From the NCBI GenBank assembly GCA_032718475.1, contig JAUCBJ010008330.1, positions 1,768 to 65,767 of the forward strand: DNA of 64,000 nt. The letters are read 5' to 3'. Both the position numbers and the translations under genes were made by a program. Origin of the DNA: Nemertoderma westbladi. Taxonomy: Eukaryota > Animalia > Xenacoelomorpha. Positions 1 to 62,765 of this stretch are shown here, one piece after another. Each line of letters opens with the position of its first letter. Within the stretch, counting starts at the first letter, position 1. The notes beneath the pieces were generated by a model. The model saw only the letters and a list, made by a program, of their open reading frames with translations, was not told the origin of the DNA and did not search any database.

Positions 1-1107
1 TTTTAGCAGTTTAACCCGCCAATTTTAGGTGTCTTCTAATTTATAAATCGACTTTAGCCTACGACAATTTATTATTACTGAAATAACATTAGCCGAAGCC
101 AGTCTATGCGCGACCATTCACCCACTGTTAAGGGAGATTGGATTCGGATGCTTTGACTTATTATTGCGTTGTAGACCTACTGTATTACTCGATTGATCGT
201 TACTATATAATCTCTGACAATATATTTACTTTCGGGGAAATATTAACAGTTCCTTTAGGACGTGGCGCTTTAAGTATAAAACAGAGTTATGACTTATACT
301 AATCACAACTAGATGTCTATTGATTTACATAAAAGGCGCATTCATTAGGAGATGCTTTATTACCAGTCACATCACCGCACACAACTTCACACTGCTTCAC
401 ACTGATCTGCTGACAGTTACTGAATTTGATCATATATAAGGAAGATAGCAGCTGACACCTGTAGGGATTATGAAATATCATTTAATTCACACAAAACCCA
501 CTATAATGTAAGTCGCAATTGCTACTGGTAACCTGTCCTCTAACCTTCAGTAATCAATAAGATTGGGGTTTTTTGGGTTCTTTATCGGTATTCTCCAAAT
601 ATAACAATATATCCATCAACAGATATAACCATTAATAACAGACAGTAAAATAATGCAGTATGTAGTAAGATGATAAGTAAGTGAGCATTGTGAGCATTGT
701 TGGTTTGGTAATAGTTTATGTTTCGATAATCAAAGGCATCTAATGTTCTGGCCAAAGTCTGAAACTTCTACAGAAGTACAGAAGAATCCTAAGCCGGTGT
801 TCTGGCTTAGAAAAGATAAACACAACTACTACTGACATACACAGACTTGCTCGGTTTACATAGCTCTTTTCCAAGAAAAATGAAAATCGCTCTGATTGGC
901 TGAGCCTAGCTGAGCCGAACAAAGAACACAGAGAACAAGGGAAAGTTCCACGTCAGCAAATCAGCTGGTAGATGTCGTCATCTGAGCTCCTCCAGCCTTT
1001 AGAGTATTTAAGCGCCTTGCGGAGAAAGTTGCTTGTTACGTCCGCCAAAGCACACATGCAGACATAGCAAAGAAAAATGGCTTTTTATGTCCGCAAAAGC
1101 TTTTACA
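1..1107 (-). mobile_element. BEL/Pao LTR (copy A), cut by the window edge; solo LTR or 5' LTR of an element lying left of the window
   Basis: Collinear with the LTRs at 15570 and 39343 (TTTAGCAGTTTAAC, GAAATATTAACAGTTCCTTTAGGACGTGGCGCT, CTGATTGG). Ends GCAAAAGCTTTTACA at 1107 and is followed by non-element sequence. Confidence 0.85.
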
Positions 1108-3575: not shown

Positions 3576-4729
3576 TGTAAAAGCTTTTGCAGACATGCGG
3601 ACAAGTCATTTTTCCCGCAATGCGCAGTGTAGGTGCTTTTGCGGACATAACAATTCATTTTTTCCGCAATGCGCAGAATACTCTAAAATAGCCCTAAATG
3701 TATTCAACGCCGTGACGGGAAGGAATCAGAGCCCCGATGACGAAATCTATCAGCTGATTCTCTGTGGACATGGAATTTTTCTTTGTTCTTCCTAGTCAGC
3801 CAATCAGAGCGATTTTCCCCCTTATGTCGAACAGAGGCCTATGGAAACCCGTGCAATTGTTTACCTTTTTCTGAGCCTCAGAACCGGCTTGGAATCTTCT
3901 GTACTTCTGTTGTGGAAGTTTCAGACTTTGGCCTAAACATCAAATGGCTTTGATTACAAGAACGTAGAACTATTAACAATTCAACTACCTTACTTGGATA
4001 CACATTTCATAACTGCATTATGTAACACATACTGACTGTTCACCACATTATTTTACTTCTGTCATTAATTGTTGTTATGTTAATGGATATTGCTGTTATA
4101 TTTGGAGAATACCGATAAATAATCATAAAACCCCCAATCTTCTTGATTACTGAAGGTGAGAGGAACAGGTTTACCGGTAGCAACTGCGACTTACATTATA
4201 GTGTTTTTGTGTGAATTAAATGCTATTTCATAATCCCTACATGTGTCAGTTGCGATCTTCCTTATATATGATCAAATTCAGTGACGGTCGGCAGATCAGT
4301 GCGAAGTAGTGTGAAGTAGTGTGAAGTCGTGTGAAGTAGTGTGAAGGTTAATAAAGCATCTCCTAAAGAATGCGCTTTTTACGAAACTCTGTGGCCATCT
4401 AGTTGTGATTAGCATAAGTCATAACTCTGTTTTTATACTTAAAGCGCCACGTCCTAAAGGAACTGTTAATATTTCCCCGAAAGTAAATATATTGTCAGAG
4501 ATTATATATTAACGATCAATCCAATAATACAGTAGGTCTACACTGCAATCACTATCAAAGCATCCGAATCCAGTCTCCCTTAACTGTGGGTGAAAGGTCA
4601 CGCACAGACTGGCTTCGGCTGATGTAACTTCAGTACATTAAATAATTGATATAGGCTAAAGTCGATTTATAAACAAAAGGACAACTAAAATTGGCAGGTT
4701 AAACTGCTAAAGGTCTAAAAGCGCGAATA
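3576..4729 (+). repeat. 5' LTR of copy B (1154 bp)
   Basis: Starts TGTAAAAGCTTTTGC and ends AAAGCGCGAATA (CA changed to TA); reverse-complement homolog of the other LTRs; contains about 5 copies of GTGAAGTAGT at 4300-4346. Confidence 0.85.
3797..3929 (+). promoter_or_regulatory. Candidate LTR promoter: CCAAT box and Inr-like GTTTCAGACTTT motif
   Basis: CCAATCAG and GTTTCAG(A/T)CTTT are kept in all four LTR variants while the surrounding U3 sequence diverges. Function is inferred. Confidence 0.4.
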
Positions 4730-6486
4730 TTAATAGTTTTAAACTCTTGATTGCACAGTAGACAATAAATATATTTGTCTAATGTTCTGGTAAGAACAAT
4801 AATAGATTTTATAGTTTCTTTAATGCACTGTAGGCAATAAAGTCGAATGTACTGGTCGGACGGTAAACTGTAGGCCTAACTACCTAACCACCCGAACCGG
4901 TACTTACCGGTACTAGTATTATTTCGATTGTGATATATTGTATATTGGTAGGCTATTTAAGAGAGTAGGGACTGTACACCCCTTATTTCTTTTAGAGCTT
5001 ATTTAAAACTGTCAATTTTATTTATCTGTAAGTGTAATATTGAGCAGAAGGCGGGTAAGCCTGCTCAGATTGTATAAATAATTTGTAGGCCGGATTGTTG
5101 TCTAACTGTTGTTAGGTCTGAAGCGATTGCAGTGTGTGTAGAGTGTCTGTCCGAAAAAGTGCTAGTTAGGAAGGTGGGGGCATCCAGTGTTGTAAGGTAA
5201 ATCCCCCCCGAAAGAATAAGTCATACTACTCGGTTAGAACGCCTACTAACTAACCATTTCGGAGTCTGCATATACTGTAGTTTATTTAGGCTTGACAGTA
5301 GTCTGCCAGCATTTGGTCTGTATTTTATTTAAATAGTCTGCACGGGTAGCGTAATATTTATTATTCAGTGTCTATGGAAGTATTCCAACCACCAACTCCC
5401 CAAGTTTATTCCTACATTAATTGTGCTTGTTATACATACCAATATAGTTAAATTAACCCCTGTACTACATCAGGGCTGCTTGGCGTAGGTAAAGACTAGT
5501 GATTTTGTGCTCCGGTCACTCCAGCAGATGATACCGTGGTTCTTTTGGCTGTTCAAGTATATTTAACTGCTGGTTATTTGTTTTATAAGTACTTGTACCT
5601 AATTTAGGGTTTAGCGTACAGTGCTTTCCTAAAGTAATTTAGTGTGTAGGCAGTATATTTGTGTTATAACGTGGTTAATAGGCACGTTAGCTCTGGTTGG
5701 CTTCGGTAATTAACCTCTAGGTAAGGACACTCCGGGTACATAACGTAGTACTTATAGAGCTAAGACTATAAGTCGTCAGACGGTGGTATTTTCTTATCTG
5801 GACAACGCAACTTACTTACTACTACTTTATTGTTTTTCCAATACTGTAGTTTCCTGTCAGTTTGTAAGATCCAGAAATTCTAACTCCTTGTTAGACTGGT
5901 TTGTAGATTTCTTGTAAAATTACCCTATAAATTGTACGTGTAACTTTTAGTGTTTATTTAGAGATTGTAATCTCAAACTGTAATTGTAAGTAATTTGTAG
6001 TGATAAGTAACTTAGTAAAGAAGAATTATCTGTGTAGTGACTCCTTAACCAGAAATAATAACATTTATTTCAAACATTGTCAAAACCCATTGTACGGGTA
6101 TATATATATTTATAAATCAACTCTCAATCAGATTTATAAAATAGTAGGCCTGTTATACATCAATTAGGTCTTAATATCAGTTGGATTACTGCTTAATAAC
6201 AGTAATAAAGTAAAGGGAAGTAACCCTAAAATTAAGAAATTCAGTTATTATAAAATAATTGACATTACCGGTATTTACGGTAGGCTTATTATATATATTT
6301 ATATAAATTTAGGCTGAAATTATATACCGGTATTCTGTGACTAATCCTAGTCTATAATAATACTTATATATACTATGGGTGTATACCGGTATTTACGGTA
6401 GGCTTATTATATATATTTATATAAATTTAGGCTGAAATTATATACCGGTATTCTGTGACTAATCCTAGTCTATAATAATACTTATA

Positions 6487-15569: not shown

Positions 15570-16775
15570 TGTACGCGCTTTTGAAGACCTTTAGCAGTTT
15601 AACCTGCCAAAATTTATATGTCTTTTGGTTTATAAATAGACTTTAACATATGACAAGTATTTAATACCAATAAACACAACATTAGCCGAAGCCAGCCTAG
15701 TGCGCGTCCATTCACCCGCTGGATATACCCGGGAGACTGGATTCGGAGGGCTTAGATTGTTATTGCAGTGTAAGCTTACTGTATTATTCGATTGATCGTT
15801 AATAAATAATTTCTGACCAATATTATTCACTTTCGGGAAATATTAACAGTTCCTTTAGGACGTGGCGCTCTATCTAGGTAAACAGAGATATGACTTATAC
15901 TAAACACAACGGTAAGTCAGTAAGGCTTATGATTCACGTATGAGGCGCATTCTTTAGGAAATGCTTAGTTATCAGTCAAAATCATGCACACTACCGGTAA
16001 CGCACAATACTGCACACTAATCTGCCGACCGTCAATGAATTTTATCATACATAAAGAGAACAGTAATTGACTCATGTAGTGCTTATCAAATAGCATTAAA
16101 TTCACTACAAACCACGATAATATAAGTCGCAATCGCTATATGTAACCTGTCTCTCTAACCTGTAGTGTATCAAGAAATTGGGAAATTTGGGTTATTTATC
16201 GATGTTCTCCAAATAATAATATTCAACCAACTGATACAAATAATAACAACAGTAAAAAGCATTAAGACGGTAGGTTAAGATTATAACAATATAAGATTGT
16301 ACCGCTGCGCTACTGCGCTGATAAGACTGATAAGACTGATAACAGTTATACGCTCTATAATCTAAGCCTACTAATGTTTCTTCTAAAGTCTGAAACGAAT
16401 TGACTCTAGAGCCGGTGTTCTTGGCCTAGATAGAAACAACAAAACTATAACACAGAAAACTATAAGACTGAACACTCCTAGCACGATCTGTAGAATATCT
16501 CCACATCGACAGTAAAAATCGCCCTGATTGGCTGTTAAGCTAAACAAAGAACCATGTGTCCAACGGCCATTTCCATGCCAGCAACCAGCTGTTAGATGTC
16601 GTAATCTGAATCATCAAGGCTACACTGTGCTAGAGGATTTGACGCATTGCGGGTTTTGTGCCTTGCCATGTCCGCCAAAGCACACATATAGAAGAATGAC
16701 TTTTATGTCCGTTAAAACACCTACAACGGTACTTTGCGGGCAAGGGGACTGATTATATCCGCAAAAGCTTTTACA
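15570..16775 (-). repeat. 3' LTR of copy C
   Basis: Direct repeat of 30754-31959 with about 9 substitutions seen by eye; preceded on the - strand by the short purine-rich tract GGGAGCGG. Confidence 0.95.
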
Positions 16776-16853
16776 CCGCTCCCAGAAAATGGGATTCAAG
16801 TCTATAAATATACAAAAATCACAGTTTCTAATATACGTAAATACTCTAAACAG

Positions 16854-30390: not shown

Positions 30391-30564
30391 CAATCTGAGC
30401 AGACTTACACGTCTTCAGCTCAATATTAACTTACATGTAAATAAAACCGACAGAAATAAGTAAAATCTCAATAAAAAACCAGGGCTGCAGTCCCTGATTA
30501 AATACTAAGACCTACCGGTATACAATAATCAAAATCGAATAATACTAATGTACTTATACTGGAA

Positions 30565-30690
30565 GTACCGGTTAGGACAGTTGGGCCTACAGACCTACAG
30601 CAGTACCGGTTCAGACAGTTAGGCCTACGGACCTACAGCAGTACCGGTTCTGGCAGTTGGGCCTACGGACCTACAGCAGTACCGGTTCAG
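30565..30690. repeat. 38-bp tandem repeat, about 3.3 copies, in the leader of copy C
   Basis: GTACCGGTT...CAGTT(G/A)GGCCTAC(A/G)GACCTACAGCA units at 30565, 30603, 30641 and 30679. Confidence 0.8.
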
Positions 30691-30753
30691 GTTTACCGGT
30701 CGACCGGTACTTTCAACTTTATTGCTTACTGCAATAAAGATAATAACTGTTAT

Positions 30754-31959
30754 TGTACGCGCTTTTGAAGACCTTTAGCAGTTTAACCTGCCAAAATTTA
30801 TATGTCTTTTGGTTTATAAATAGACTTTAACATATGACAAGTATTTAATACCAATAAACACAACATTAGCCGATGCCAGCCTAGTGCGCGTCCATTCACC
30901 CGCTGGATATACGCAGGAGACTGGATTCGGAGGGCTTAGATTGTTATTGCAGTGTAAGCTTACTGTATTATTCGATTGATCGTTAATAAATAATTTCTGA
31001 CCAATATTATTCACTTTCGGGAAATATTAACAGTTCCTTTAGGACGTGGCGCTCTATCTAGGTAAACAGAGATATGACTTATACTAAACACAACGGTAAG
31101 TCGGTAAGGCTTATGATTCACGTATGAGGCGCATTCTTTAGGAAATGCTTAGTTATCAGTCAAAATCATGCACACTACCGGTAACGCACAATACTGCACA
31201 CTAATCTGCCGACCGTCAATGAATTTTATCATACATAAAGAGAACAGCAATTGACTCATGTAGTGCTTATCAAATAGCATTAAATTCACTACAAACCACG
31301 ATAATATAAGTCGCAATCGCTATATGTAACCTGTCTCTCTAACCTGTAGTGTATCAAGAAATTGGGAAATTTGGGTTATTTATCGATGTTCTCCAAATAA
31401 TAATATTCAACCAACTGATACAAATAATAACAACAGTAAAAAGCATTAAGACGGTAGGTTAAGATTATAACAATATAAGATTGTACCGCTGCGCTACTGC
31501 GCTGATAAAACTGATAAGACTGATAACAGTTATACGCTCTATAATCTAAGCCTACTAATGTTTCTTCTAAAGTCTGAAACGAATTGACTCTAGAGCCAGT
31601 GTTCTTGGCCTAGATAGAAACAACAAAACTATAACACAGAAAACTATAAGACTGAACACTCCTAGCACGATCTGTAGAATATCTCCACATCGACAGTAAA
31701 AATCGCCCTGATTGGCTGTTAAGCTAAACAAAGAACCATGTGTCCAACGGCCGTTTCCATGCCAGCAACCAGCTGTTAGATGTCGTAATCTGAATCATCA
31801 AGGCTACACTGTGCTAGAGGATTTGACGCATAGCGGGTTTTGTGCCTTGCCATGTCCGCCAAAGCACACATATAGAAGAATGACTTTTATGTCCGTTAAA
31901 ACACCTACAACGGTACTTTGCGGGCAAGGGGACTGATTATATCCGCAAAAGCTTTTACA
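30754..31959 (-). repeat. 5' LTR of copy C
   Basis: 1206-bp repeat of 15570-16775; lies upstream of gag on the - strand. Confidence 0.95.
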
Positions 31960-39342: not shown

Positions 39343-40479
39343 TGTTCGCGCTTTCAGACCTTTAGCAGTTTAACCTGCCAAATTAGGATGTCTTCTAGAT
39401 AATAGATAGTCTTTAGCCTACGACAAATATTTGATACACTACATTAGCCGAAACCAGTCCATGCGCGATCATTCACCCGCTGGATATACCCGGGAGACTG
39501 GATTCGGAAGCCTAATCGTATTGCGGGATAGACCTACTGTATTATTCGACTGATCGTAATATATATAATCTCTGACAATATTATTCACTTTCGGGAAATA
39601 TTAACAGTTCCTTTAGGACGTGGCGCTCTAAATATATAAACAGAGTTATGACTTAAACCAGACGCAACGGGATGGCTATAGATTCACGTATATGGCGCAT
39701 TCTTTAGGAGATGCTTCGTTATCAATCACAATCATACACAATACTGCACAATGCTGCACACTAATCTGCCGACCTTCACTAATTTTAGTCACATATAAGG
39801 AGAACAACAGACAATACGTGTAGGGCCTATAAAATAGCATTAGATTCACTTCAAACCACTTAATGTAAGTCGCAATCGTTATATGTATCCGGTCTCTCTA
39901 ACCTTTAGTATATCAAGAAGATTGGGGTGTCTGATTGTTTATCAGTATTCCAAATATAATGTTCCATCAACAAATATAATGAATAGCCGACAGCAAAAGC
40001 AGTAATGTTAAGGTATGAATGATTAAGTTATGGATAGATAACGGATATACGTTCTATAATTAAGCCTACTAATGTTAAGCTAAAGACTGAAACACGGAGG
40101 TTCCACGCCGGTGTTGTAGGCTGTGGAAAAATCACATACTGACTCACTTCCCTAGTTTCTATATACCATCTCCAACACAGAGGCAAAAAACGCTCTGATT
40201 GGTCGACCGAACAAAGAGAGAACAAAGAACAAAGAGATGTTCTACGTGGCAATATCAGCTGTTAGCCGTCGTCATGGTATCTACACTGTTTCAAGAGGAT
40301 CCGGCTTATTGCGTCATAGAATTGCTAATCATGTCCGCTAAAGTACACATACAGAAGAAATGGCTTTTATGTCCTCTAAAACAACAATACAGTAAGGACA
40401 CGGCCTTTTATGCCGGTTAAACCAACTACAGAGTACTTTACGGGGAACATAACCGGCTAATTACGCAAAAGCCTTTACA
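39343..40479 (-). repeat. 3' LTR of copy D
   Basis: Repeat of 54090-55226 with about 5 substitutions seen by eye; preceded on the - strand by GGGAGCGG as in C. Confidence 0.95.
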
Positions 40480-40557
40480 CCGCTCCCAGAAAATGCGATT
40501 TAAGTCTATAAAATATAACAAATCACAGTTTCTAAAATATAAAGATACTCTAAACAG

Positions 40558-42079: not shown

Positions 42080-43724
42080 ATCTGCTATATAAGTTTATCC
42101 ATATTATAATGAGTTTATATTTAGGCGAGCGGGCGTCGCTGCCTACCCCTCTCTGCCCCCGGTCAGTGCGAGATCCTCAGCGCTGGTGTACTTTCGCCGA
42201 TGTGCCTATCGCCAACGTCGTAGCTGCACAACGACTACAACAACCAGCACAAGTCACTCCACCGTCCGTCCCAAAGGCTTAGATATACTTCAGGTTCTTA
42301 CTGGAGAGTTAGGGCTACTTTCACAATTGCGACTCGCTACTGTAAACACACCTTAGTAGTAACATTCACCTACAAACGCACAAATTCCACGTAACTGTCA
42401 CAAATGGTACACATTCTATCACACATTTGGGTCATTTGTCCGTTAGTCAAGTGCCTTCCAGAATGTCACGTTGTTATTATGTATCCTTGGATACTAGCGG
42501 TGTGCTATTTATTCCGTATGCTATTCAATGCGCAAGCCCTTTATTGTTCTTTTAACTCACTTCTAATTCTAGCGTGGTTGTTGCCATGGTGACATTATGG
42601 AAAGCTAGCGGTAGAATTAGGGTAATTCTCATGCATACAGATCTGGGATGCTATTTAATAGTAATTCTTTAATTGTCAATATCCTCTCTATATATGATTT
42701 TATGAATTTTATCGGCTATTGACTATATAGTGGAGATTCTCGCACACAAATACACCCAACAGAGTGAATCTCCGCTCCCATGATCTATTAATTAATGGAA
42801 TTTTGGGAATATTATAAATTGTATAAAATGACAATTTATTAAATTCATTGAAATAATATGAATTTAAATTTATTCCCGTAAATTTTATTATTTAATGTTA
42901 AATAGACGTAATTTTATTCCAGAACGTGTCTGGGGACTGGGATCCTTGATTCTAGGAATTTTGTCTTTTTAAGAGTATCGGTAAGTGCTACGATATCTTA
43001 ATCGACTAGAATGTTAAAGGATCTAAAATTTGACAGATTTTGTAAATATTAATAATTAATATTTAGGATGGGCACCAGTTTATTCCAGAACTTGTCTGGG
43101 GACGTAACCACTGATTCTAGAATTTTGTCTTTCAAGTATATCGGTGGGTGCCGCGATATCTTAATCGACTAGAATTGCAGATGGTCAAAGGGTTTAACAG
43201 ATTTATTTTGCGTTATACGCTACTGTTAAAGGGACATCACGCTACTATATGTATTATTTAATATACGGTATGAGAGCAATATCGCACGAAGCAATGTCAG
43301 TGTGAAGAGGCAAGTCGTTTCCAAGGTCTACCCAGAGCTTGGTTTAGCCGAGACACGAGGATCTGAACTTTGCATTCCTAATACTCTGCCTACCAATAAT
43401 ACTTAAATATAGTAGTGGCTTTATTGTACTTTAATAAGTACGGACATTTCATCTTACTGTAGTTACGTATTCGTAATGTAATACGGGCAGTAAGGAAAGA
43501 GAAAAAGAATTATTTCTCGCCGTCGCACTAAATATATAATATGTAAGTAATTAAGTAATAAACGCGAATATATATTGCACTAATCTACTAAATAATCGCT
43601 AAAATAACATTCTACTAAATAAAATTAAAGAAAATGATTATAATAAAATTACATAATAATATATACATAAATATAAAAGAATAAAACAAATACAAATATA
43701 GTCATACACCCACTCCAGCCGTTG

Positions 43725-46700
43725 TTAAGTTGGGGAGTCCCTAGATGTTTGTTGGATTAGGGAGGTGGTCGTGGGAAGAGTATCTTGCCTCCCATAGTTT
43801 CCGGAGAGTTCTCTGTCTCTTTCCAGTAAACATAAGCGACCAACTGGGCGATTGAGCTGCTGCGTCTCGAAGACAATTCCCAGTTTCTTGAAGTTACGTC
43901 GCATGACGACGAGTTCTACCGATCGCACCAAACCGTCATCCGAGATGTGAGTCTCGATGATACGACCTGTCTGCCACCGCTTACGTGGAAGATCTACATC
44001 CACAATAAGAACCATGTCTCCAGCGCTGACATTTTCTTGCTGCGCAAACCACTTAGTACGAAGTTGTAGCGTGGGCAGATAATGTTTTTCAAAATGATCA
44101 GCGAAACGACGGGATAACAACTGCATGAGTTGCCAAGTTTGCCGGCATTATTCGTCTCCGTCTGTGATTTCCGATTGTGGGAGCATGGCTACAGGTTTCT
44201 TTAGTAGGAAATGCGCGGGTGTTAGCGCTTCCAGGGAATCGGGACTCGATGAGACTGGCATAAGCGGTCTCTCGTTGAGATAGGCGGCGATTTCCTCCAT
44301 TAACGTCCGCAAAAGTTCGTCGGTGAGATACGCGCGGCAAGGCACTATAAAGTGAAATGCTGTCTTCACACTTCTTATTAATCTCTCCCAACTTCCTCCC
44401 CACCAAGGGGCGTCGGCGGCGTTGAAGGTCCAGCTAGACGCTGTTACTCGTAGCTGATCGTCCACCTGTCTTTGGTTCCAATCTTTGACGTAAGCTTTGA
44501 TTTCATTGTTGGCACCAATGAAGTTTGTTCCCTTATCAGATCTCATCGTGTTACTAGTGCCAAAGCGAGCGATCTGTCGTCGTAAACTTAATAGAAAGCT
44601 GTTGGTAGATAAATCGTTCACCATGTCGAGATGGATAGCCCTACAAGTCATACAAACAAAGATGACACACCATCTCTTGACTATAGTCCTAGCACGATAT
44701 ACTTCAATAGGGCCAAATAAATCCACACCGGTATTAGTAAAGGGTGGTTCATAGAAGCTTACTCGTTCCCTAGGTAATTCTGCCTCTCGCTGTGTTAAAG
44801 GCCTACTGAATGCTTTCCTACAGGGTATGCAGTTCCTAAGAACTTGGTTCAGAGCTCTACGGGGTTTATAAAAATAATAGCGAGTTCGAATTTCGCTAAG
44901 AACTCGTTCCCTACCAGCATGATAAAGTTTGCTGTGAACGTCTACAATCATCTTGACTTGTATTTCAAGATTTCTAATGAGTATGGGAAACTTAGTGTCA
45001 AAGGATAGTGGAGCATTCGTTAATCTTCCTCCAACACGTATCAACCCATCTATCATTGTGCTAGAGAAACGATCCCTTAAGCGCATCTGTGGATTTCTCA
45101 ACAACAGGAAATACTTATCGGAATCCTCATAGCATTGCAGGAGTCTCGGCATCTGCTTGTTGGTTTCTTCATGCTCCTGATAACTAATCTTCTCCTTCAG
45201 AAACCTGTCGGGTATCTTATATTTGGGAAGATCTTTAATAACATGGACCTGCACTGATGTTATTGGAGCGGTATCACTTTTGGTCTTCATCCCGGAGTAG
45301 TGATGGTGAAAACATCTCTTTAAATATGTAACGGCCTTACAGAGCCGATTCCAGGAACTGTAGTGATGTATCGCTCTCTGCAGAAGAGGTGAGAGTCCTT
45401 GCGAGACGTCTGGTATTCCAGATTTCCAATCCTTCTCACGGATTTCCACAACAAGTTTATTGGTGGCTGTGGGTTTCTGATCCAAAGCGTCGTCTCTGGA
45501 AATATGTAGTACAGACAGATCTACCATGGGTTTGAATAACTTCGATTTACTCGCCCGAGTTTTAGGTTTGACTTTCTCCACTCCCTTGGCCTGTCTAATC
45601 TCTGCTGTAGTAAGATGAGGAGGCCATTCTTCTTCTTCTTTGTAGAGGAAGTCGGGTCCACCTAGCCAGTCTGGAGTATCTACCAGTTCTTGTGGAGTTG
45701 CTCCCCTGGAGGCGATGTCTGCTGGATTAATCGTTCCGGGGCAATGTCTCCGTTGATCCATCGTTGTGCGACTGAGTATAATGGCTACTCTGTTGGTAAC
45801 GAAGACGCTGAACTGACAGACTTCATTGGTTATATACTCCAACACGAGTAAAGCGTCGGTCCAATAGACAGTTTTCTCCAGGGGATAGTCGATCTGTTCT
45901 GTTACATTCCGGCCGATGGCTGTAGCGTATAGAGCCGCTTTTAACTCCGCTCGAGGAACTTTCAACTTATTGTTTATCAATGCCTTAGAAGTAACCAAGG
46001 CGACTTTGATTCCGTCCGGAGTTTCCACCCTTAGGTAGGCTACTATACCTATTCCCATATCGCTGGCGTCTCCAAATACATGGAGTTGATAGGAATACGT
46101 AGGGAGAACATGACCAAAATATGAACGGGAAATTATAAAGTTCTCGATGGCTGGTAGAGAATCTTCCCATTTCATCCACTTCTTTAATAATTCTCCCTTA
46201 AGTGGATCGTCCCATGAGTGGTTTTCAAGCCACATTTGTTGTACTAAACTCCGAGCAATCAATATAACTGGGCTAATAAATCCCAATGGATCGAAATAAG
46301 TGCTCAGGATACTTAAACAAATCCGTTTAGTCCGAACTGGATTATCTCGCTGTTTTAGTTGGAAAAACAGGATATCTCTTTCGGTGTCCCATTTCAAACC
46401 AAGGGTCTTAGTTTCTGGGAGATCATCCTTTATTAGATCCAGGTCTTTTGCTCCTCGATCTTCTACCGGGATCGACTCCAGAAACTCACGGGAGTTGCTG
46501 GTGAATTTAGTTAATCGAAATCCACCTCTTTTTAAGCACTCTACCGTTCCTTTAGCGACATCGATGGCTTCTTCGACTGATGGAAGGGACTTTAGATTGT
46601 CGTCCATGTATATATCCCGCTTAATGTTGTCAATCACCTCTTTAGAGAAGGCGTCTCGGTTGTCATCCGCAGTGGTGCGCACCACGGAACAGGCGTTTGA

Positions 46701-49700
46701 AGGGCTCGAGATTATCCCAAAAGCCTGGATGGTCATCCAGTACTCCACCGGTTTCTGATTGAGGTCTCCTTCAGGCCACCACAGAAATCGTAGGCAGTCT
46801 CGATCCCTATCCAGCGCTTTGACTTGTAAGAACATGCCTTCTATATCTGAGGCGAAAGCAATGGAATATTGTCTTAATCTTAAAAGTATTCCCAACAATG
46901 ATTGGAGTAAGTTGGGTCCGGGTAGCAATTCAGAATTAAGGGATTGGCCCATATAGAGGGCGGAGCCGTCAAACACCACTCGTACCTCATGTGGTTTACC
47001 GGGTTTGGGAACGTAATGGTGAGTTAAATAATACGTTCTCTCAGTTATAGGTGTTTCTTCCGGTACTAGCTCCGCATATCCCTTGCTAATAAACTTCTTC
47101 AACTGCGTTTGATACATTTCTTTAGCTGAAGAATTTGCCGTAAGGCGTCGATGTAGTTGAGCAATTCTTTTCTCCGCCAAGGGTCTGTTGTTTACGAACT
47201 TTGGTTCTCGCTTTCGGAAAGGTAGACCGATCTCATATCTACCTTGATCTTTAAGAAAACGTGTAGTTGTCTCTTGGATCTGCTTGGCTATTTCTTCCTC
47301 TACCGATATGGGCCTTATCGTAGGAATTGGGCTCTACAGCCTCTTGAGTAAAGAATCGTACGGCATGTTCATCCCGAGTCTTGGCATTATATCGTTCAAT
47401 GACGTCATTAAGTTCGTCGTTATAGTCGTCTCGTTCTGATGGAAGAAGGAGCTGACATAAGTTCACTTGGTTTTGCCAAGTCTCGTTTTCCTTAAGGAGA
47501 TCGATGGTATTCTCCTCATCGAAAAGTTGGTGGACATCGTCATTATCTGAGGAGTATGGTGTTCCCTCAGTTAGATCATCTAACTCACTGCCCTCGACTT
47601 CCCATTCTCTCACTTGACATACCTGGTCTTTCGGTAATCTTTCCATGAGAGTTCTACGGGAAGGGCCAGTAAAGTACCAACCCACTCTAGTTCTTCCCGC
47701 ATAAGCTTGTAGTGGTCGCGGTTGAGCGGGCCGTTTCTCCAATGTCTCGAGCGCTTCATGCGCGTTTTGACCGATGAGTATTTGCACTCCAGGGTAATCG
47801 ATGTTGAATCTAGGTATTTCCAGCTGCTGGGTGAAATCGTCCTCATCCCAGTTATAAGGTTCTACTTGAGTGGTAGCGAAGTTCTTTATCGCCACCATTT
47901 TTACTGACCTTATGCTATGTTCTCCTAGTTCATCCTGGGGGGTGGACAACGCTCCTACATAATAATCCGCGATTACTGTAGATTTCCAAACCTGCATAAT
48001 TCCTGACATGTTTAGCTTAGTTCGGAACTTGGGTTGTCCAGCAAAGATGTCTTCGGCTAGTTCTTTGTCGATGAATGTTCCTGTACTACCGGAGTCAAGG
48101 AGGGCGTTCACTACATAACTCCTTTTAGGTCCGTGGACCCTTACCTGTACTACAGGAAATTCTCGGATTCCTACATTGGAAGATGGCGCTTTCCAAGATG
48201 GTTGTCGATCAGAAGTAGTTAGGGTGAGGTCGCTGTCTGTATCTTTTTCATACGTGAGTGCTCGATACACTGCGGTATTTATCATGTAACAGGATTCGTT
48301 TTCGTCGGAGAACTCGTCCGTATAGAATCCTTCCATCTCAGATTGATCAGTGTCGTTCACATCACTGAATTGGACATGTAGTTCGGAATCACTTACCTGA
48401 CTCGGACTATTTCGCTCGAATTCAGTGTGCAACAAGATATGATGTTTCGCACCGCACTTTGCACACCTTGTGTCGGAGTAACAGGTTCGCCGTTGGTGTC
48501 CTTGTCTGAGGCAATTATAACACAACCGCTTATCCCACATGACTTCCCGTCTCTCCGCTAATGATTTCTTCAGGAATTCATCACACATATTTAAACGGTG
48601 AGTCCCGTCACATAGCGCACATTTCGGTTTGATGTTACTTACCTTATTTTGAATAACATTGTGCACACTCGTTCTTTCTTCGGGCTTTCTCACCTGAATT
48701 ATCTTGGGAGACGTAGGAGGAGTTTTTCTTACCTGTTCTCTCCTGTCATTGGTTCGAGACTTGAATTTACTTACCGGTTCTTTAGGCGTTTTATTGACAT
48801 AATAAGATCTTTCAGTGTCTTTCCCGCTATCCTCTCCTTGAGAAGTCTGGCTTTCGCCGTCGTCTGTATAACACACTGGTGTTACCTTTCTCCTAGAGAC
48901 GGGTTTCTCACTTACCTTGTTTTCCGGTGTCTTCTCTCTGGACTGCTTTATGAGCTGTAATTTCACTTCGCCATCCAAGAATGACATGAGATCAGCCATG
49001 GTAGGGTCTCGTTGTTGTTGTTCCATCATATATAACACTTTCTTGTCCCAGCGTGTACCTACTCCACCCTTCGGTAAAGTAGAAGCCACTGCTCTAATAA
49101 CCATAGCACTCTGATATTCATGAGACTTACCTAGCCAATCTAATTGTCTGCAGATCTCCTGAATCTCATCGTAAAACTCTATAATCCCGCTGCTAATAAA
49201 CTTTCGGGGCACTACCAACTTTGCATACAAATACCCAGCTATGTTATTCCTATTACCATACCTGATGTTTAGTGTATCCCAAACTTGTCTTAATCCGTCT
49301 GGATGTCCAATAAACTTTAACGCCATTAGCTTGGGAGATCCTTCCAAGCACTCGATGAGGAATCTAAGTTTCTCTCCATTAGATAGTACAGAGTTCTGTA
49401 TGTTATCTTTGTAATATTCATTAAAAGGTAACCATTTCATCTCATCTCCATTGAACTTGACGATCTCTCCCACCTTTACCGCTTGCCGGGCTTCGGTTCT
49501 AGCCATTTGACGCGTAAAACTTTCTTGGGCCATCGTGTTATTCAATATCGAGTTATCGGTATATAAATTTCTCGGATTATGATCAGGTCTATAGGGAATA
49601 TCATTATCAACAGGTCTATAATTACCCTTAATAGGGTTCACTATAGGAGTTTCTACTTCGCTAGCAGTATATATGCGTGTAGGCTCCACACCTTGCGCAT

Positions 49701-51945
49701 GAGATACTTCAGACCTAACAGGTTGACACATTGTTACCGGGGGTGGTGGTATACCCTTTTGTAAATTTACTAATTTATCGCGTTCTAGCGCGATACTTTG
49801 CTGCACTTCTTGCAACTCTAACCTACTTTCCTTTACGGTTCCCTTTAACTGTTGAACAGTCCCTTCTAACTCTCGGACCTGTTGGGAGGAGCGCACTCGA
49901 TTCTCCTCCATCTTTCCGAGGAGAATATCCATCCCCCGCCGTCTCTCGTCTACCCAATCAACCGCCGAAGCGGGATCCGCCAACGACGTAGCGGGCAGAC
50001 GAGGGACTACGGGCGATATATCCTTTATATTTCGCTCGGAGTCCAGGACCGACACTGTTTCAGGGGCTGTTCCTATAGGCACAGATAATTTGGTGCTGTG
50101 TAAAGGGAATTTAAAGGTAGGTTCTGGGAGTACAGGTGTCTCTATCACCGAAGGGGTGATTTCAAGAACAGGCCTAATTATTTCAGGCTCATCTACTATA
50201 GTAGGGAGTCTTTCTATTTTAATTATTTGGTCTGTGGGTTCTGTACTACCTAAGTTTGTGTTATTTAGTTGCCTTCTAACAGCTAGAGGCAAATCAGGCA
50301 ATTTCTGATGGTGGGACATTCTTTTACGTCTACTTAGACGAGATCTATTTCCTCCGCCTTCAGGATCGGTGGTATCGCCTTCCTCAGATGATGTATAACC
50401 TTGTCTTTTGGGAGTAGATCGATTCATCATCTGCATATTACTAGCTGTTAACTGTTTATTAAAGTTATCTTGCCTCTCTTGAAGATTTTCCAATTCTAGT
50501 TGGGCAGTCTCTTCAGACGCCTTTCGTTCTGCTTCTGCCACTGCAGCTGCCAAAGCCGCTTTTCTTTCTGCTTCTGCCACTGCAGCTGCCAAGGCCGCTT
50601 TTCTTTCTACCTCTGCCACTGCAGCCTTTCTTTCTGCTTCTGCCACTGCTGCTGCCGCTGCTTTTCTTTCTGCTTCTGCCACTGCAGCTGCCAAGGCCGC
50701 TTTTCTTTCTGCCTCTGCCACTGCCGCTTTTCTTTCTGCTTCTGCCACTGCTGCTGCCGCTGCTGCTATCTTTCTGTCTTCTATACGTTTTTTCTTTACT
50801 TGTTCTTCTTGAACCTTAGTGAGGCGGATGCTTTCATCAAATTTAGCTTGGTTCGCAGCTCTCATATCCACATCGATGGCGTCCAACACACGCTGGGCTG
50901 CTTCACTATTAGGGCTAAGTCCCTCTAGCCTTCTCCTCAGCTCTTCATCACCTACAAAACGTTGATAGTCCGACAGATAGATATCAATAGCATCCCTCTT
51001 ATGCGGTTTCTCTGCCGTCGCTTCACTCTCCACTTGGGAAAATGTAGCATCTGTTGATTCTCCATGGGTTGAGCGCTCATCTAGCTGGGCTTTCCACTGA
51101 GCCGTTCCTTGAACCTGGAGACTCACCCTTTGAAACCAAGTCTTTACAGCAACTTGCAACGACGTGTCTTGTCTTCTTTTAGAAGCCTCCTCAAAGGCTG
51201 ATAAGATTAGCCTGATTCGTAGAATTCTTTCTCTAACTTGATAAAGCAGTTGTCCCTGCTCTTGAGGTCCTTGGGGTTGTTGAAACAGTTGTTTTTCTAC
51301 TCGCTCCATAGAGCTTACGAATCCCTGTACTTATCCGGCTGCGGACCTCTTCCACACAGCTGGATCGACGGTTTCCTTGGTTACTCCCATCCTGTGTATA
51401 TCTTCCCAGGCAGCTTCTGATAAATCAAACGGGAGTCCGGGTCCGGGGAAGTTCCATTGCGACTCGACAATAGACTTCAGTTCTTCCCTTGTATATCCCG
51501 CATAACTATCTTTAGTCGATCGCTTAATTCTCGCCCAATCTATCTGGTGTTCTTCCACCGCAATCAATAACCTAGTGAGTATGGCTGCAGGAAGGATGAG
51601 AAGGGGATCCGAATAAACCGCATTCGTCATCTTTGCTCCGCGCTCGGGTGTCAGCTCTACAGTATCCTCACTACTGGAGCTGTCGGGCCGTTGAGAAATA
51701 AGTTCTTGGCTCGCGGGTTGTTGTTGTTCCGCTGCTTCTTGGTCCCGCTTGACCTGAGCTCGAGTGCCTATGATAGACCTACGGTGTTGGACCAGCCTAG
51801 GTTCTGATATTACTACTGGGGGAATGATCTTTCTTACAGTAGGAGGTGAGTTGAACTTCGGTCCTACACGTTCCACACTCCTGTCTGGGTCACATATGGT
51901 TGTATCTAGGAGACTGTCTGACAGGTTTTGCTTTGTGTCAGACAT
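43725..51945 (-). pseudogene. BEL Gag-Pol polyprotein of copy D (about 2740 aa reconstructed)
   Basis: Fused Gag-PR in ORF 47251-51309 and RT-RH-IN in 44148-47180. Three lesions seen: TAA at 51331-51333, a +1 insertion near 47309 and TAA at 44148-44150. Confidence 0.95.
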
Positions 51946-53207
51946 GTTGGTTTGTACAGTTGAATGCCTACTGCTATATTACAGTTTAAGCAAGTCTAGT
52001 AATTCAGTATCACTGTTAGCCTAGTAATTAATTACCGATACTGCTACTCAGTGTAGCGTGATATCTATATAATATATTAGAATACCGGTATGCTTATAGT
52101 ATATATATAAGTATTATTACAGACTAGAATTAATTACAGAATACCGGTATAATTTCAGCCTAAATTTATAGAAATAAATATAATAAGCCTATGGTAAATA
52201 CCGGTATGTCAATTATTTTAAATAATTGAATTTCTGAATTTTAAGGGTTACTTGGTTACTTTAACTTACTTTATTACCGTTATTTGAGCAGTAGTCCAAC
52301 TGATATTGAGACCTAATTGTTGTATGGCAGGCCTACTTATTTATAAATCGTTTGAGTTGATTTATAATATATATATATACCCGTTTAATGGGTTTTGTCA
52401 ATATTTGAAATAAATGTTATTATTTCTGGGGGAGCCACTACACAGAAGCTGTGCGCTCTCAGTGGAGTGCTACTTGTTGGACACTAAAACAAATAATTCT
52501 AATTTACCTAAGTTACTTAATACTATAAATTACGTACAATTCGGGTTGAGATTACAATCTCTAAATAAACACAAAAAAATTACAAATACACAAATACGAA
52601 TTTTTTAGGGTAATTTTACAAGAAGTCTACTAACCAGCCTAACAAAGGGTTAGAATATCTGGTTATTACAACGGACAGAGTACTACGGTATTTGAAAATA
52701 ATAAGTAGTAGAAAATATACTGCGTTGTCCAGATAGAAAAATACCACCGTCTGACGACTTATAGCCGTATCCCTATAAGTACTACGTTATGTATCACGGA
52801 GTGTTCCTACCTAGAAGTTAATTACCGCGGTCTACCAGAACCAACGTGCCTATTAACCACTTTACAACACAAATATACTGCTTACACACTAATCACCTTC
52901 GGAAAGCACTGTACACTAAACCTTAAATTAGGTACTAGTACTTGTACAACAAATAATCAGTAGTTAAAAATACTTGAACAGCTAAAAGAACCACGGTATC
53001 TGCCGGAGTGACCAAAGCACAAAATCTCCAGTCTTTACCTACGCCGAGCAGCCCTGATGTAGTACCGGGGTTAGTTTAACTGTAACGGTATATATAACAA
53101 GCACAATTACTATAGGAATAAACTTGGGGATATGAATGTTGCGAATAATCGCATAAACTCTGAATAATAAATATTACGCTACGCGCACAGACTACTCAAA
53201 CAAAATG

Positions 53208-53745
53208 CAGACCAAATACTGACAGACTACTATCAAGCCTAAACAAACTACGGTATATGCAGACTCCGAAATGGTTAGTTAGTATGCGTTCTAACCTAGT
53301 AGTACGACTTATTCTTTCAGAGGGGGTTTACCTCACAGCACTGGAAGCCCCTACGTTCCCAACTGGCACTTTATCGGACATACACTCTACACACACCGAA
53401 ATTTCCTCAGACCTAAGAACAGCCAGACAACTATCCAGCCTACAAATTATCTAAATAAGAATTATACGCTACCTGTACAGACTACACAAACAAAGTACAG
53501 ACCAAACGATGGCAGACTACTATCAAGCCTAAATAAACTACAGTATATGCAGACTCCGAAATGATTAGTTAGTATGCGTTCTAACCTAGTAGTACGACTT
53601 ATTCTTTCAAAGGGGGTTTACCTCACAGCACTTGAAGCCCCTACGTTCCTAACTAGCACTTTATCGGACAGATGCTCTACACACACTGCAATCCGTTCAG
53701 ACTTAACAACAGTTAGACAACAGTCCAGCCTACAAATTATCTGTA
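53208..53745. repeat. Direct duplication (period about 290 bp) in the leader of copy D
   Basis: CAGACCAAA...CAGACTACTATCAAGCCTAAA...CCAGCCTACAAATTATCT at about 53208 and 53498. Confidence 0.8.
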
Positions 53746-54089
53746 CAATCTGAGCAGGCTTACACGCCTTCTGCTCAATATTGGTCTATAAATAAATAAA
53801 ACTTGACAGAAATAAGTAAAATCTCAATAAAAAACCAGGGCGGCCGTCCCTGATTAATTATTAAGGCCTACCGGTATATAATTATCAAAATCGAATAATA
53901 CTGCTGTACCTGTACTGCTGTAGGTACCGGTCCGGGTGGTTAGGTAGTCAGGCCTACTGGGTACCGGTTGCCGGTACTTCAGCTTTATTGCCTACTGCAA
54001 TACAGAAGCTATATCCGTTATTGTTCTTACCAGAACAATATTAAACTGTATTTATTGCCTACCCTGCAATCCGAACGTATATCCGTTAT

Positions 54090-55226
54090 TGTTCGCGCTT
54101 TCAGACCTTTAGCAGTTTAACCTGCCAAATTAGGATGTCTTCTAGATAATAGATAGTCTTTAGCCTACGACAAATATTTGATACACTACATTAGCCGAAA
54201 CCAGTCTATGCGCGATCATTCACCCGCTGGATATACCCGGGAGACTGGATTCGGAAGCCTAATCGTATTGCGGGATAGACCTACTGTATTATTCGACTGA
54301 TCTTAATATATATAATCTCTGACAATATTATTCACTTTCGGGAAATATTAACAGTTCCTTTAGGACGTGGCGCTCTAAATATATAAACAGAGTTATGACT
54401 TAAACCAGACGCAACGGGATGGCTATAGATTCACGTATATGGCGCATTCTTTAGGAGATGCTTCGTTATCAATCACAATCATACACAATACTGCACAATG
54501 CTGCACACTAATCTGCCGACCTTCACTAATTTTAGTCACATATAAGGAGAACAACAGACAATACGTGAAGGGCCTATAAAATAGCATTAGATTCACTTCA
54601 AACCACTTAATGTAAGTCGCAATCGTTATATGTATCCGGTCTCTCTAACCTTTAGTATATCAAGAAGATTGGGGTGTCTGATTGTTTATCAGTATTCCGA
54701 ATATAATGTTCCATCAACAAATATAATGAATAGCCGACAGCAAAAGCAGTAATGTTAAGGTATGAATGATTAAGTTATGGATAGATAACGGATATACGTT
54801 CTATAATTAAGCCTACTAATGTTAAGCTAAAGACTGAAACACGGAGGTTCCACGCCGGTGTTGTAGGCTGTGGAAAAATCACATACTGACTCACTTCCCT
54901 AGTTTCTATATACCATCTCCAACACAGAGGCAAAAAACGCTCTGATTGGTCGACCGAACAAAGAGAGAACAAAGAACAAAGAGATGTTCTACGTGGCAAT
55001 ATCAGCTGTTAGCCGTCGTCATGGTATCTACACTGTTTCAAGAGGATCCGGCTTATTGCGTCATAGAATTGCTAATCATGTCCGCTAAAGTACACATACA
55101 GAAGAAATGGCTTTTATGTCCTCTAAAACAACAATACAGTAAGGACACGGCCTTTTATGCCGGTTAAACCAACTACAGAGTACTTTACGGGGAAAATAAC
55201 CGGCTAATTACGCAAAAGCCTTTACA
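54090..55226 (-). repeat. 5' LTR of copy D
   Basis: 1137-bp repeat of 39343-40479. Confidence 0.95.
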
Positions 55227-55468
55227 CTAGCCACCAAGGAAAACCCTAGCTACCTTCAATTACACTAGCTACCAACAATAATACTAGCTACCAAGGAAAA
55301 GCCTTACCTTCAATTACACTTAAGCTATCAATAATAATACTAGCCACCAAGGAAAACCCTAGCTACCTTCAATTACACTAGCTACCAACAATAATACTAG
55401 CCACCAAGGAAAACCCTAGCTACCTTCAATTACACTAGCTACCAACAATAATACTAGCTTCCAGGAAA
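55227..55468. repeat. 57-bp satellite, right part
   Basis: The same 19-bp monomers resume in phase after the TSD. Confidence 0.9.
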
Positions 55469-55580
55469 ATTAATTTCACCCCCGATATTTCGTTGCAAGC
55501 GAAATTTTCACTCTCGATATTTTTACGGGTTTATAGAGGTATCGATTAAACTAAATTAAGAGTAGGCCTATTAATAATAA

Positions 55581-60029: not shown

Positions 60030-60173
60030 CGCCGATTGTGCGGGGGGGGGGGGGGGGTTGTGTTTGGATCGGTGGCGGTATAGATGAGGGACTCGTAGAT
60101 AATTCTTAATTATCGATATCGTTAAGTCTCGACATTTTTCATAAATCCAGGTGTATAAAATTGGAAACAGAAG

Positions 60174-62765
60174 ATGTCCAATGCTGATTTATTACATAAT
60201 ATTCACCCTGAAGTTAGAAAACTAATTATAAAGGCAATAGATGAAAGATGGGAGTACATTCCTGATATGTGGCCAAAGTCGGATGCGGCGAATCCACGTG
60301 AATATTATAATCTATATGATGTTTTAAACAGCAACATCGATCAGAGACTCTGCAATCAGGGAGAAACAGCAGGATGTAAAACTGAGTATGAGATAATCGA
60401 AAGTCTACTTTTGTCAGAAATTCAATGTCTCGCAGAAACATATCAAGACGGCGGATGTATGCAAGAAATCCACTTGTGGTTATTCATGATAATATTTTTA
60501 TATGATGCATCAACTTCTAAGTTATACTTGACAGAATTTTATGAAAGAATGAGAAAAATGTTTTCATTAGTAGAAGACTATGATTGTCATATTCCCAGCC
60601 AGTTAATATGTTTGGCAAATATGGGATTCTCAACCATAGAGGGAACGGGGAATTATGAAATACTTAAATTTGTGAAATACCCCAAGTTTTTTTTAAATAG
60701 ACTTAGCAAAGAATTTGACCCTGAAACTAAACATGATGACCCCGCCCAGAGAGAATATAAAGAACGGATATTGAACCATGGCCAGTCATTTGATTTAGTC
60801 GTTTCAATGGAAACAGAATGCAATCCAATTGACCATATTGAAAGAATTATACAGATTTTGCCTATAATGACATCTTTTAGTGATACTTGCGTTCGCGAGT
60901 ATGTTTATGTTTTAGCACAAAGTTATAAGCCTATTCTCCGTTGTTTAGTTGAATTTCGAAGTGCAGATAAGATCAATCCAACCACTACAGACAATATCAT
61001 AAAGTCATTACAAAATTCAACCGCAGAGTTACTCTTTGATATGTTATACAAATGTCTCAATTTACCTTTTCTAACCAATCCAGAATATGACGAACTTGCA
61101 AAATTAACCTACGAATTTTCATTAAAAGCTACAATGTCATTGATTTTGATTAAAGATGTCCCGCAATTGCGACTGATCTATTTTTGGTTATGTTCTCATC
61201 GATATTTAGAAGAAGAAAAATACTTGACCTCCGAGAAATTACCCCCAAAGCCATTGACACCAATGCATCGAAGATGGTACTCACTCATCTACACCTTTCG
61301 AGATTTCTATCACATTTTTAAGACTTTTAACAATTCAGATAAAACAGAGCGATTACTGAAAGTTTTGTGTTTCTGTACTGATATGGTATGGAATCTGAAT
61401 GAGAGTAATACATTTGTTCATCGTTCATATTGCTATATACTACAATGTTACACTGAATTACATAAGTGTATAAGCGATATATATGAACTAATCCACCCCT
61501 GGTTAAAAGACCTGATTATGAGTAATAGGCAGTCTGAAATTTCACACAGTTTATACAGCTTTGAATCCCTTAAGAAATGGGATGAATCCTTTGATAAGAT
61601 CACTGATTATTTGGATTCATGGCAGTTCATTTCAAACTACTCGCCTATTGTCCAAACAGCAAAATATCTGTATATTGGCGCTTCGGGACAAACAATTGAG
61701 TCGGATTACATTATTAATATCGGGAATGAAGTCAAAACTGAAACTAAAGGTAGCCAGAGGATACCTTTTTGGGTTAATGCATTAAGCTTAACAGTGGCGG
61801 ATGATATTGAAGAAACCATCATTGGAAAGACATTTAAATCTAAACACATGGATTGTAGAGATATCCAACAATGTAAAAAGATGTACCTAGATGAAGTCGC
61901 ATCTCAACGAACTGCAAATAATTATGCTATACAAATGTCATTCCAGTCTATCAAGTTAAATATTCAACAAACTAAAGTTACGAAGTTTCATTTTTTGAAA
62001 GTTAAATGTCTTCAATTAGATTTTCCTTGTAAGTCGATAAAAACGAACTTTATAAATATTGAAAAGTATAACTCATTTGATTATAGGAAATTGTCAAATA
62101 ATTTTAATTTCTTAGATAAATCACAATATGGTGAATTTGGAGCATGTTTTTCTCACTTTACTTATGTAATATCAGGAGGCAAAGAAATCGTTACGGATAT
62201 TCAAGGATTTTGCTACCCAAATATCAAGTTTATTATTCTCACTGATCCCCAGATACATTCCCTTGCTGAGGAGAAAAAGTATGGCATTGGAAATTGTCGA
62301 ATGGCGGGAATTAAGTCATTCTTTCGTGATCAACATCCAACATGTGGCGAATTATGTCGATCCATGGGGATAAGTGAAAAAAGGTTTGATTACTTTGAAT
62401 CAGGTCATCCACAAAGCGTTGATCAGGATGAGTATCAAAGAATATTAGAAATGTTTTTGGAAGCAAATCCACATATAAAAGCGATGGCAGAAACAAGGGG
62501 AATCACTGTGAAAAGTTTGGATAAAGAAACATTAACACAATATATTGCACATCCAGTTTATTCAAAAATGGTAAAACAACTTCTTAAAACTGTACATGTT
62601 GATGATGAAACAGTTACTTTATTTCCAGCAGATATTTATGGAGATATATTGAGCTCAGAAAATGTATCAGGATCAGGAAACCAATATTATTTTAGACATT
62701 TATTTCGGAGATTAAAATTGAAGTTAACGATCCCATCATCTTTAAATACTGTCAAAAATAAATAA
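60174..62765 (+). CDS. Alpha-kinase (atypical eEF2K/MHCK family), ALPK1-like kinase domain, 863 aa, intronless
   Basis: KGSQRIPFWV, IIGKTFK, VASQRTANNYA, KLSNN, FSHFTY, VTDIQG, LTDPQIHS, GIGNC, FFRDQHPTCGELC (zinc site); about 490-aa unrecognised N-terminal region. Confidence 0.88.
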   Translation: MSNADLLHNIHPEVRKLIIKAIDERWEYIPDMWPKSDAANPREYYNLYDVLNSNIDQRLCNQGETAGCKTEYEIIESLLLSEIQCLAETYQDGGCMQEIHLWLFMIIFLYDASTSKLYLTEFYERMRKMFSLVEDYDCHIPSQLICLANMGFSTIEGTGNYEILKFVKYPKFFLNRLSKEFDPETKHDDPAQREYKERILNHGQSFDLVVSMETECNPIDHIERIIQILPIMTSFSDTCVREYVYVLAQSYKPILRCLVEFRSADKINPTTTDNIIKSLQNSTAELLFDMLYKCLNLPFLTNPEYDELAKLTYEFSLKATMSLILIKDVPQLRLIYFWLCSHRYLEEEKYLTSEKLPPKPLTPMHRRWYSLIYTFRDFYHIFKTFNNSDKTERLLKVLCFCTDMVWNLNESNTFVHRSYCYILQCYTELHKCISDIYELIHPWLKDLIMSNRQSEISHSLYSFESLKKWDESFDKITDYLDSWQFISNYSPIVQTAKYLYIGASGQTIESDYIINIGNEVKTETKGSQRIPFWVNALSLTVADDIEETIIGKTFKSKHMDCRDIQQCKKMYLDEVASQRTANNYAIQMSFQSIKLNIQQTKVTKFHFLKVKCLQLDFPCKSIKTNFINIEKYNSFDYRKLSNNFNFLDKSQYGEFGACFSHFTYVISGGKEIVTDIQGFCYPNIKFIILTDPQIHSLAEEKKYGIGNCRMAGIKSFFRDQHPTCGELCRSMGISEKRFDYFESGHPQSVDQDEYQRILEMFLEANPHIKAMAETRGITVKSLDKETLTQYIAHPVYSKMVKQLLKTVHVDDETVTLFPADIYGDILSSENVSGSGNQYYFRHLFRRLKLKLTIPSSLNTVKNK

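Follow-up and report, generated by a model that had tools for sequence, protein, structure and literature searches.

The fission yeast retrotransposons Tf1 and Tf2 (Schizosaccharomyces pombe) are described, in the accessible text of two reports (PMC5341516, PMC4600332), as priming themselves with a 5' part of their own RNA that is released by an RNase H cut. In the accessible part of a third (10.1101/2022.12.06.519325), the Tf1 fold consists of a central primer duplex and two further duplexes in which sequence adjacent to the primer-binding site pairs with LTR sequence downstream of the primer. Self-primers have also been predicted for the plant elements Tcn1 (Ty3/gypsy) and TAR (Ty1/copia), from a complement of at least 10 nt that starts 0-5 nt after the LTR (PMC6317226, accessible part); the trait had thus already been proposed outside the Tf1/sushi group, which makes the case presented here somewhat less surprising. 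For BEL/Pao elements (Belpaoviridae, Semotivirus), the ICTV profile lists a genome of 4.2-10 kb and an 18-nt site for tRNA-Arg or tRNA-Gly, and calls their replication poorly understood (PMC8742986), in agreement with a preliminary description of the present locus that took BEL/Pao elements to be generally described as tRNA-primed. That description knew of no self-primed BEL/Pao element, and our literature search, which is thin on subscription papers, supplements and Repbase, likewise yielded no report of one, nor did the accessible text of PMC3118150, PMC554778, PMC10886601, PMC3601003, PMC6934838, PMC8220671, PMC5443660 and PMC3286476. A literature search for BEL/Pao self-priming via a splice junction was also without match. 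For the nematode element Cer7, a self-encoded tRNA-like primer has reportedly been proposed, a proposal for which the literature search returned no match.

The 64-kb stretch of Nemertoderma westbladi DNA analyzed here (the window) contains four related LTRs, belonging to copies A, B, C and D of one family (Table 1). The LTR ends of copies D and C are fixed by 5-bp target-site duplications, whereas the end of the copy B LTR (..ATA) is set by homology only, its 3' LTR being absent from the window. Pfam matches occur in Gag-Pol order (DUF1759, Peptidase_A17, Integrase_H2C2 and DUF5641, with an RNase H-region domain present) and the reverse transcriptase (RT) carries YMDD, indicating that the proteins are of BEL/Pao type. 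The best protein matches are all Pao-type, with 31-43% identity (best, 43% and 41%). Both C and D have disrupted reading frames, the breaks lying at different places in the two, so activity of either copy is not to be assumed; in D, the Gag-protease frame has an in-frame stop on its 5' side and a frame break at its 3' end. The family shares with BEL/Pao elements the DUF1759 Gag with three zinc knuckles, the protease-RT-RNase H-integrase order, Peptidase_A17 and DUF5641, the 5-bp target duplication, the TG..CA termini, an 8-nt purine-rich tract (in C and D) and LTR lengths that lie at the upper limit of the 0.2-1.2 kb range. However, it lacks the 18-nt tRNA site of the ICTV profile, the first TGG of any copy lying at +58 or beyond, and the full-length elements measure 15,884 and 16,390 bp rather than 4.2-10 kb. 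Since tRNA site and genome size both depart from the profile, the family is a BEL/Pao-lineage element outside it. It further differs from BEL/Pao elements in an extra zinc-knuckle frame in copy C, in the lack of any env-like domain match, and in a long branch with no close relative. The extra frame, an open frame with two CCHC-type knuckles at 16857-17906 (-) in the interval between integrase and 3' LTR, has no Pfam match, only weak zinc-knuckle look-alikes scoring under 0.9; it is mostly absent from D, is not env-like and, as a guess, might encode an RNA chaperone. The 2-kb leaders of D and C each contain a 290-bp tandem duplication (~53190-53740 and ~29865-30390), and C has a 38-bp array in addition.

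Table 1. Coordinates, in the window, of the LTR elements and of the predicted priming features, with the loci of relatives that pair with a predicted splice junction.
Feature	Positions	Strand	Remarks
Copy D, full length	39343-55226	-	15,884 bp
Copy D target-site duplication	55227-55231 and 39338-39342		5 bp
Copy D 5' LTR	54090..55226	-	1137 nt, TG..CA; 5 differences from 3' LTR
Copy D 3' LTR	39343..40479	-	carries the primer site too
Copy D purine tract, 5' of 3' LTR	40480..40487	-	8 nt; identical in copy C
Copy D Gag-protease frame	47251..51330	-	DUF1759, three zinc knuckles, weak aspartyl protease
Copy D RT-RNase H-integrase frame	44148..47333	-	YMDD, Peptidase_A17, Integrase_H2C2
Copy C, full length	15570-31959	-	16,390 bp
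Copy C 5' LTR	30754..31959	-	1206 nt; 9 differences from 3' LTR; 5-bp target-site duplication
Copy C 3' LTR	15570..16775	-
Copy B 5' LTR	3576..4729	+	1154 nt; end placed by homology; element interrupted, truncated
Copy A LTR	1..1107	-	3' end just beyond the window
Copy A own variant of primer site	708-719	-	within the copy A LTR
Copy D predicted self-primer site	54785..54801	-	conserved core 54785-54795
Copy D primer-binding position	54073..54089	-	17 nt complementary to own LTR; conserved core 54079-54089
Copy D second primer-binding copy, in leader duplication	54010..54021	-	12 Watson-Crick pairs with the 54785-54801 site
Copy C predicted self-primer site	31523..31533	-
Copy C primer-binding position	30743..30753	-	11 Watson-Crick pairs
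Copy B predicted self-primer site	3965..3976	+
Copy B primer-binding position	4730..4741	+	12 pairs with one G-U
Copy D helix 2, U5 arm (pairs with leader)	54265..54280	-
Copy D helix 2, leader arm	54057..54072	-	directly 3' of primer-binding position
Copy C helix 2, U5 arm	30944..30959	-
Copy C helix 2, leader arm	30724..30737	-
Copy B helix 2, U5 arm	4536..4551	+
Copy B helix 2, leader arm	4748..4763	+
Copy D helix 3, U5 arm (pairs with LTR end)	54203..54215	-
Copy D helix 3, LTR-end arm	54093..54107	-	directly 5' of primer-binding position
Conserved "Inr-like" motif upstream of primer site	54826..54843	-	alternative partner of LTR end; acceptor-like
Junction-pairing relatives	L003, L008, L077, L035, L060, L085, L089, L028, L043, L088		LTR and first 20 nt of leader

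The preliminary description had reported that none of the three 5' LTRs is directly followed by TGG and that the sequence found there can pair with the LTR of the same element, and both statements hold on rechecked coordinates. The first TGG lies at +58 in D and +59 in B, and none occurs in the first 153 nt of C; as a primer site, the TGG at +58/+59 was ruled out, being remote from the LTR end and missing in C. Pairing starts at base +1 after the LTR in D, C and B, with an exact 17-nt complement in D, 11 Watson-Crick pairs in C (then 3 mismatches and 6 pairs including one G-U) and 12 pairs including one G-U in B (then 3 mismatches and 5 pairs), of which the first 9 form the uninterrupted Watson-Crick run. 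The three own-LTR matches fall at one aligned position, near LTR position 400-440 and 695 (D), 769 (C) and 753 (B) nt from the LTR end, in keeping with the strong-stop length of about 700-770 nt proposed earlier. The 17 nt of D are exact, yet the length common to all copies is only 11-12 bp, past which C, B and a second leader copy in D show an internal loop of 2-3 nt and then 3-6 more pairs. The Tf1 primer is 11 nt long, and its primer-binding site is said to begin with the same letters as the one here.

Each primer-binding stretch fits its own LTR specifically. On the remaining window LTRs, it gives Watson-Crick runs from base 1 of only 5-7 at best; in the 11-bp core, by contrast, all 33 of 33 cells are paired and 5 of the 11 pairs are altered on both sides (for comparison, 40% of columns vary across the whole LTR), which upholds the earlier claim of covariation. 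The number of matches expected by chance in the own LTR is 1.4e-7 for D (17 nt), 0.0012 for C (11 nt) and 0.017 for B (9 nt), and none of 326 pairings between primer-binding positions and unrelated LTRs reaches 11 contiguous bases. By energy, copy B is weak, at -9.5 kcal with its own LTR versus -9.0 with the other two. An invariant U5 motif can also pair with part of the primer-binding stretch of B and C; it does not vary with that stretch and is thus not the covarying partner. The duplex could instead be a structural or regulatory helix, serving packaging, dimerisation or a translation switch, with priming by a host RNA, for instance a tRNA half. The 5' region is indeed rich in conserved helices, and Copia lineages are known to prime with half-tRNAs in the absence of TGG according to the accessible text of PMC6317226 and PMC10886601, yet we hold this explanation to be quite unlikely: pairing runs from base +1, the position at which a primer has to end, and 5 of the 11 site positions differ among the three copies, each following its own LTR, so that no single host RNA can match all sites. 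No tRNA gene was found in the 64-kb window. The primer-binding stretch is duplicated together with the leader arm described below in D (53985-54056, -) and B (4764-4840, +) but not in C, and the spacer of this duplication ends in a 6-bp inverted repeat that resembles an LTR end.

Two further helices accompany the central duplex. Helix 2 joins U5, at 190-210 nt before the LTR end, to the leader (14 pairs); 40 of its 42 cells are paired, with four two-sided changes, and it is the best leader duplex in all three copies, at the same aligned place, while 4, 1 and 2 of 100 shuffles, respectively, were equally good in the three copies. Helix 3 joins U5 to the LTR end (11 pairs), with 32 of 33 cells paired, one two-sided change and one mismatch in B. 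Taken singly, the helices are modest against shuffles, 1-8 of 100 being as good. In the whole three-helix structure, drawn from these three copies only and scored on the same copies, 97% of 108 cells are paired and ten pairs are changed on both sides; none of 500 shuffles matches it, a control inflated by the relatedness of the rows, and partners slid out of register pair in 31-39% of cells, a control that favors the fold because the structure was drawn from the same three copies. In local folding, the primer-binding stretch is mostly open in C and largely paired otherwise in D and B. A search of Rfam gave no match at E 1 in 53700-55300.

As far as the accessible reports go, Tf1/Tf2, Tj1 and Tosmo1-3 of the Tf1/sushi group (Ty3/gypsy chromoviruses) share with the window family a post-LTR position complementary to the own LTR, and the three-duplex fold is shared as well, although here it is a predicted one, with four and one two-sided changes in the flanking helices and a competitor for helix 3. 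The family differs from that group in its Pao-type Pol and in the lack of a chromodomain match (Pfam, E 0.01), so it is not a member, though it would work alike. Its R-U5 would be about 700-770 nt long, and its pairing resumes past the internal loop, so that the primer might not coincide with the very 5' end of the RNA. The Tcn1 and TAR elements of plants belong to other superfamilies and hosts; the rule by which their self-primers were predicted, as worded in the accessible text, is matched or approached by all window copies, with 17, 11 and 12 (with one G-U) paired bases.

The competitor of helix 3 is a conserved motif about which the preliminary description was right in part: its conservation stands, whereas the suggested role as an Inr-like start site gained no support and there are two other readings, an LTR-end partner and a splice-acceptor-like sequence. 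The motif can pair with the LTR end (54099-54113 in D) at -22.6 kcal in D, -12.8 in B and -8.9 in C, stronger than helix 3 in D and about equal to it in B; since such pairing is possible, it need not be a start site, and the competing helix is a possible switch. No conserved TATA box was found upstream of the primer site in the window LTRs, and no conserved polyadenylation hexamer within them (none at all in D), while a conserved AATAAA lies directly 3' of the leader arm (54051-54056 (-) in D, 30718-30723 (-) in C and 4764-4769 (+) in B) and could mark the end of a short LTR transcript. The hexamers bear on a differently organized self-priming, in which the primer would be supplied by the site as it recurs in the 3' LTR portion of the RNA (at a natural or cut 3' end), by the second RNA of a dimer or by a short LTR transcript. 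That the primer site is present in both LTRs, that the hexamer lies 3' of the leader arm and not in the LTRs, and that the second primer-binding copy follows the own site variant in D (12 pairs) and, more weakly, in B would all suit such a scheme. Nevertheless, it appears unlikely, because the flanking helices are arranged as in Tf1, whose primer, in the accessible account, is the RNA 5' end, and because scarcely any R would remain in an RNA that ended at the site, unless its start lay well upstream.

Taken together, the covarying feature is real, and self-priming itself is likely on the evidence of sequence comparison. We consider it probable that, like Tf1, the family initiates minus-strand DNA synthesis from a fragment of its own RNA, because the pairing begins at base +1, covaries copy by copy, replaces a TGG site and is accompanied by two more covarying helices, and because relatives pair with themselves as well (see below). 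Weighing against it are the missing conserved TATA box, the competing partner of the LTR end, the primer-binding stretch of D and B being largely closed in local folding, and, in comparison with the relatives, the long R-U5 of the family and their lack of a clear leader-U5 helix (see below). Transcription would start upstream of the primer site, at about LTR position 430, and the two U5 helices would keep the primer-binding stretch open for annealing of the 5' RNA segment. The element RNase H would then cut just 3' of the duplex, leaving a 3' OH next to the LTR terminal CA, from which RT would copy 695-770 nt of R-U5 before jumping to the 3' LTR. The predicted RNA ends are 54785 (D), 31523 (C) and 3976 (B), and the predicted strong-stop DNA is 695-770 nt long. 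Because 3-6 pairs follow the loop and D pairs over 17 nt unbroken, the primer probably extends beyond its paired part.

Assembled contigs, in which the family is highly repeated in the sequencing runs that contain it, provide further copies. Among the site variants listed (40 of 203 variant rows), 54790 G>A has a share of ~87-95%. Its partner change 54084 C>T, with a share of ~10%, was seen in three runs from two samples (28, 21 and 12 contigs), and the C-type change 54082 T>A is also present. Since these changes are not linked to one another and 54084 C>T falls far short of 54790 G>A in share, all they show is that both compensatory halves exist. One contig carries a fourth primer-binding type which, read by eye, forms 11 of 12 pairs with the site of copy A. 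Listed substitutions and indels cluster at primer-binding positions 12-15, where depth is ~3,000 versus >100,000 at positions 4-11, and few contigs align through the stretch of D; in view of these changes, the low alignment and the loop seen elsewhere, the 17-nt pairing of D is probably a minority extension. Such an extension may stem from copying of a retained primer in plus-strand synthesis, which would imply a primer of at least 17 nt. The Tf1 primer reportedly remains on the cDNA.

The same minority state is what would be expected if the complement were a by-product, a template switch having copied an LTR stretch into this position without function, since the unbroken 17 nt of D suggest templated rewriting. 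We regard this as very improbable. Templated rewriting is also the expected effect of a retained self-primer, the internal second copy of D fits the site of D too (12 pairs), the flanking helices covary though they lie away from the junction, and priming would be left unexplained.

We extended the comparison to 96 Pao-type Pol loci from metagenome and genome collections (30-45% identity), which are likely animal host DNA. Two usable LTR ends were lacking in 78 of them, and among the 18 kept, L033 and L038 were dropped for an unclear end, leaving 16 relatives. None of these has a contiguous self-complement of more than 6 nt from base +1. However, 10 of the 16, from six separate groups, show 10-15 nt of pairing to a predicted GTRAG..AG splice junction located in the same element's LTR when GTRAG is required, whereas only 3 of 326 unrelated junction pairings reach 10, one of them the site of copy C at 11. 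The introns predicted in the relatives' LTRs span 67-451 nt. When only GT and AG were required, 9 of 12 picked donors were GTRAG, a motif that makes up 0-9% of GT sites in the relatives' LTRs; the corresponding P of 5e-12 is overstated because sisters were counted. In the sisters L085 and L089, three exon-end letters differ with matching changes (own 11, crossed 4). L082 fits a predicted junction with one mismatch, L031 is ambiguous and L042 shows nothing. The remaining three relatives carry a tRNA-type TGG site and have a junction score of 0; they form a single clade (support 0.99). Self-pairing and TGG thus never occur together in clear cases, which further speaks against a merely structural duplex.

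The window family stands apart from these relatives. Its R-U5 of ~700-770 nt compares with 44-278 nt in the relatives, which also offer no clear case of a leader-U5 helix, L028 alone reaching 4 of 100 with a helix that overlaps its primer site. In an RT tree of 110 stretches (midpoint root, no outgroup, no named references, five loci dropped for short matches), C and D occupy a long branch for which no sister group is supported, and their placement has low support. A splice-made primer in the window family itself was rejected, the own spliced score with GTRAG donors being 0 in D, C and B, among which only D has a GTRAG donor upstream of the primer site; 3+15 and 2+9 spliced splits, with poor donors and no added pairing, were rejected as well. 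Judging from the junction-pairing relatives together with the unspliced window family, self-pairing appears to replace the tRNA site repeatedly in this part of BEL/Pao and to do so in two forms. A broader proposition, on which we are evenly divided, is that much of the BEL/Pao diversity of aquatic invertebrates lacks a tRNA primer: many lineages would splice an LTR intron to build the primer, and the window family would be an offshoot with giant LTRs, its unspliced primer sitting in a three-helix knot like that of Tf1 but of independent origin, whose competing helix possibly switches priming. One further relative, L087, has an LTR of at least 1629 nt (1561-3189) that reaches the contig end.

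If self-priming holds for the window family, the mechanism would extend to a third LTR superfamily, convergent evolution of the Tf1 RNA fold would be indicated, and the failure of primer-site finders on many invertebrate elements would be explained. Such elements may also escape control by tRNA fragments.

Several observations concern the surroundings and wider occurrence of the copies. The LTR motif of the family had no match in metagenome or viral contigs, and an alignment of its Pol found no relative in viral contigs. In one assembled contig (run X2; joint 55226 to 54090), an LTR end is joined to an LTR start via 20 other letters, reflecting either tandem LTRs or a circle junction. Copy D is embedded in a 57-bp (19-bp unit) minisatellite (38410-39342 and 55227-55469). 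A Tc1-type transposase frame (6620-7768) splits the leader of copy B, an RT frame with DUF6451 (11528-12841) lies beyond the truncation of copy B, and an alpha-kinase frame (60159-62765) occupies the right end of the window.
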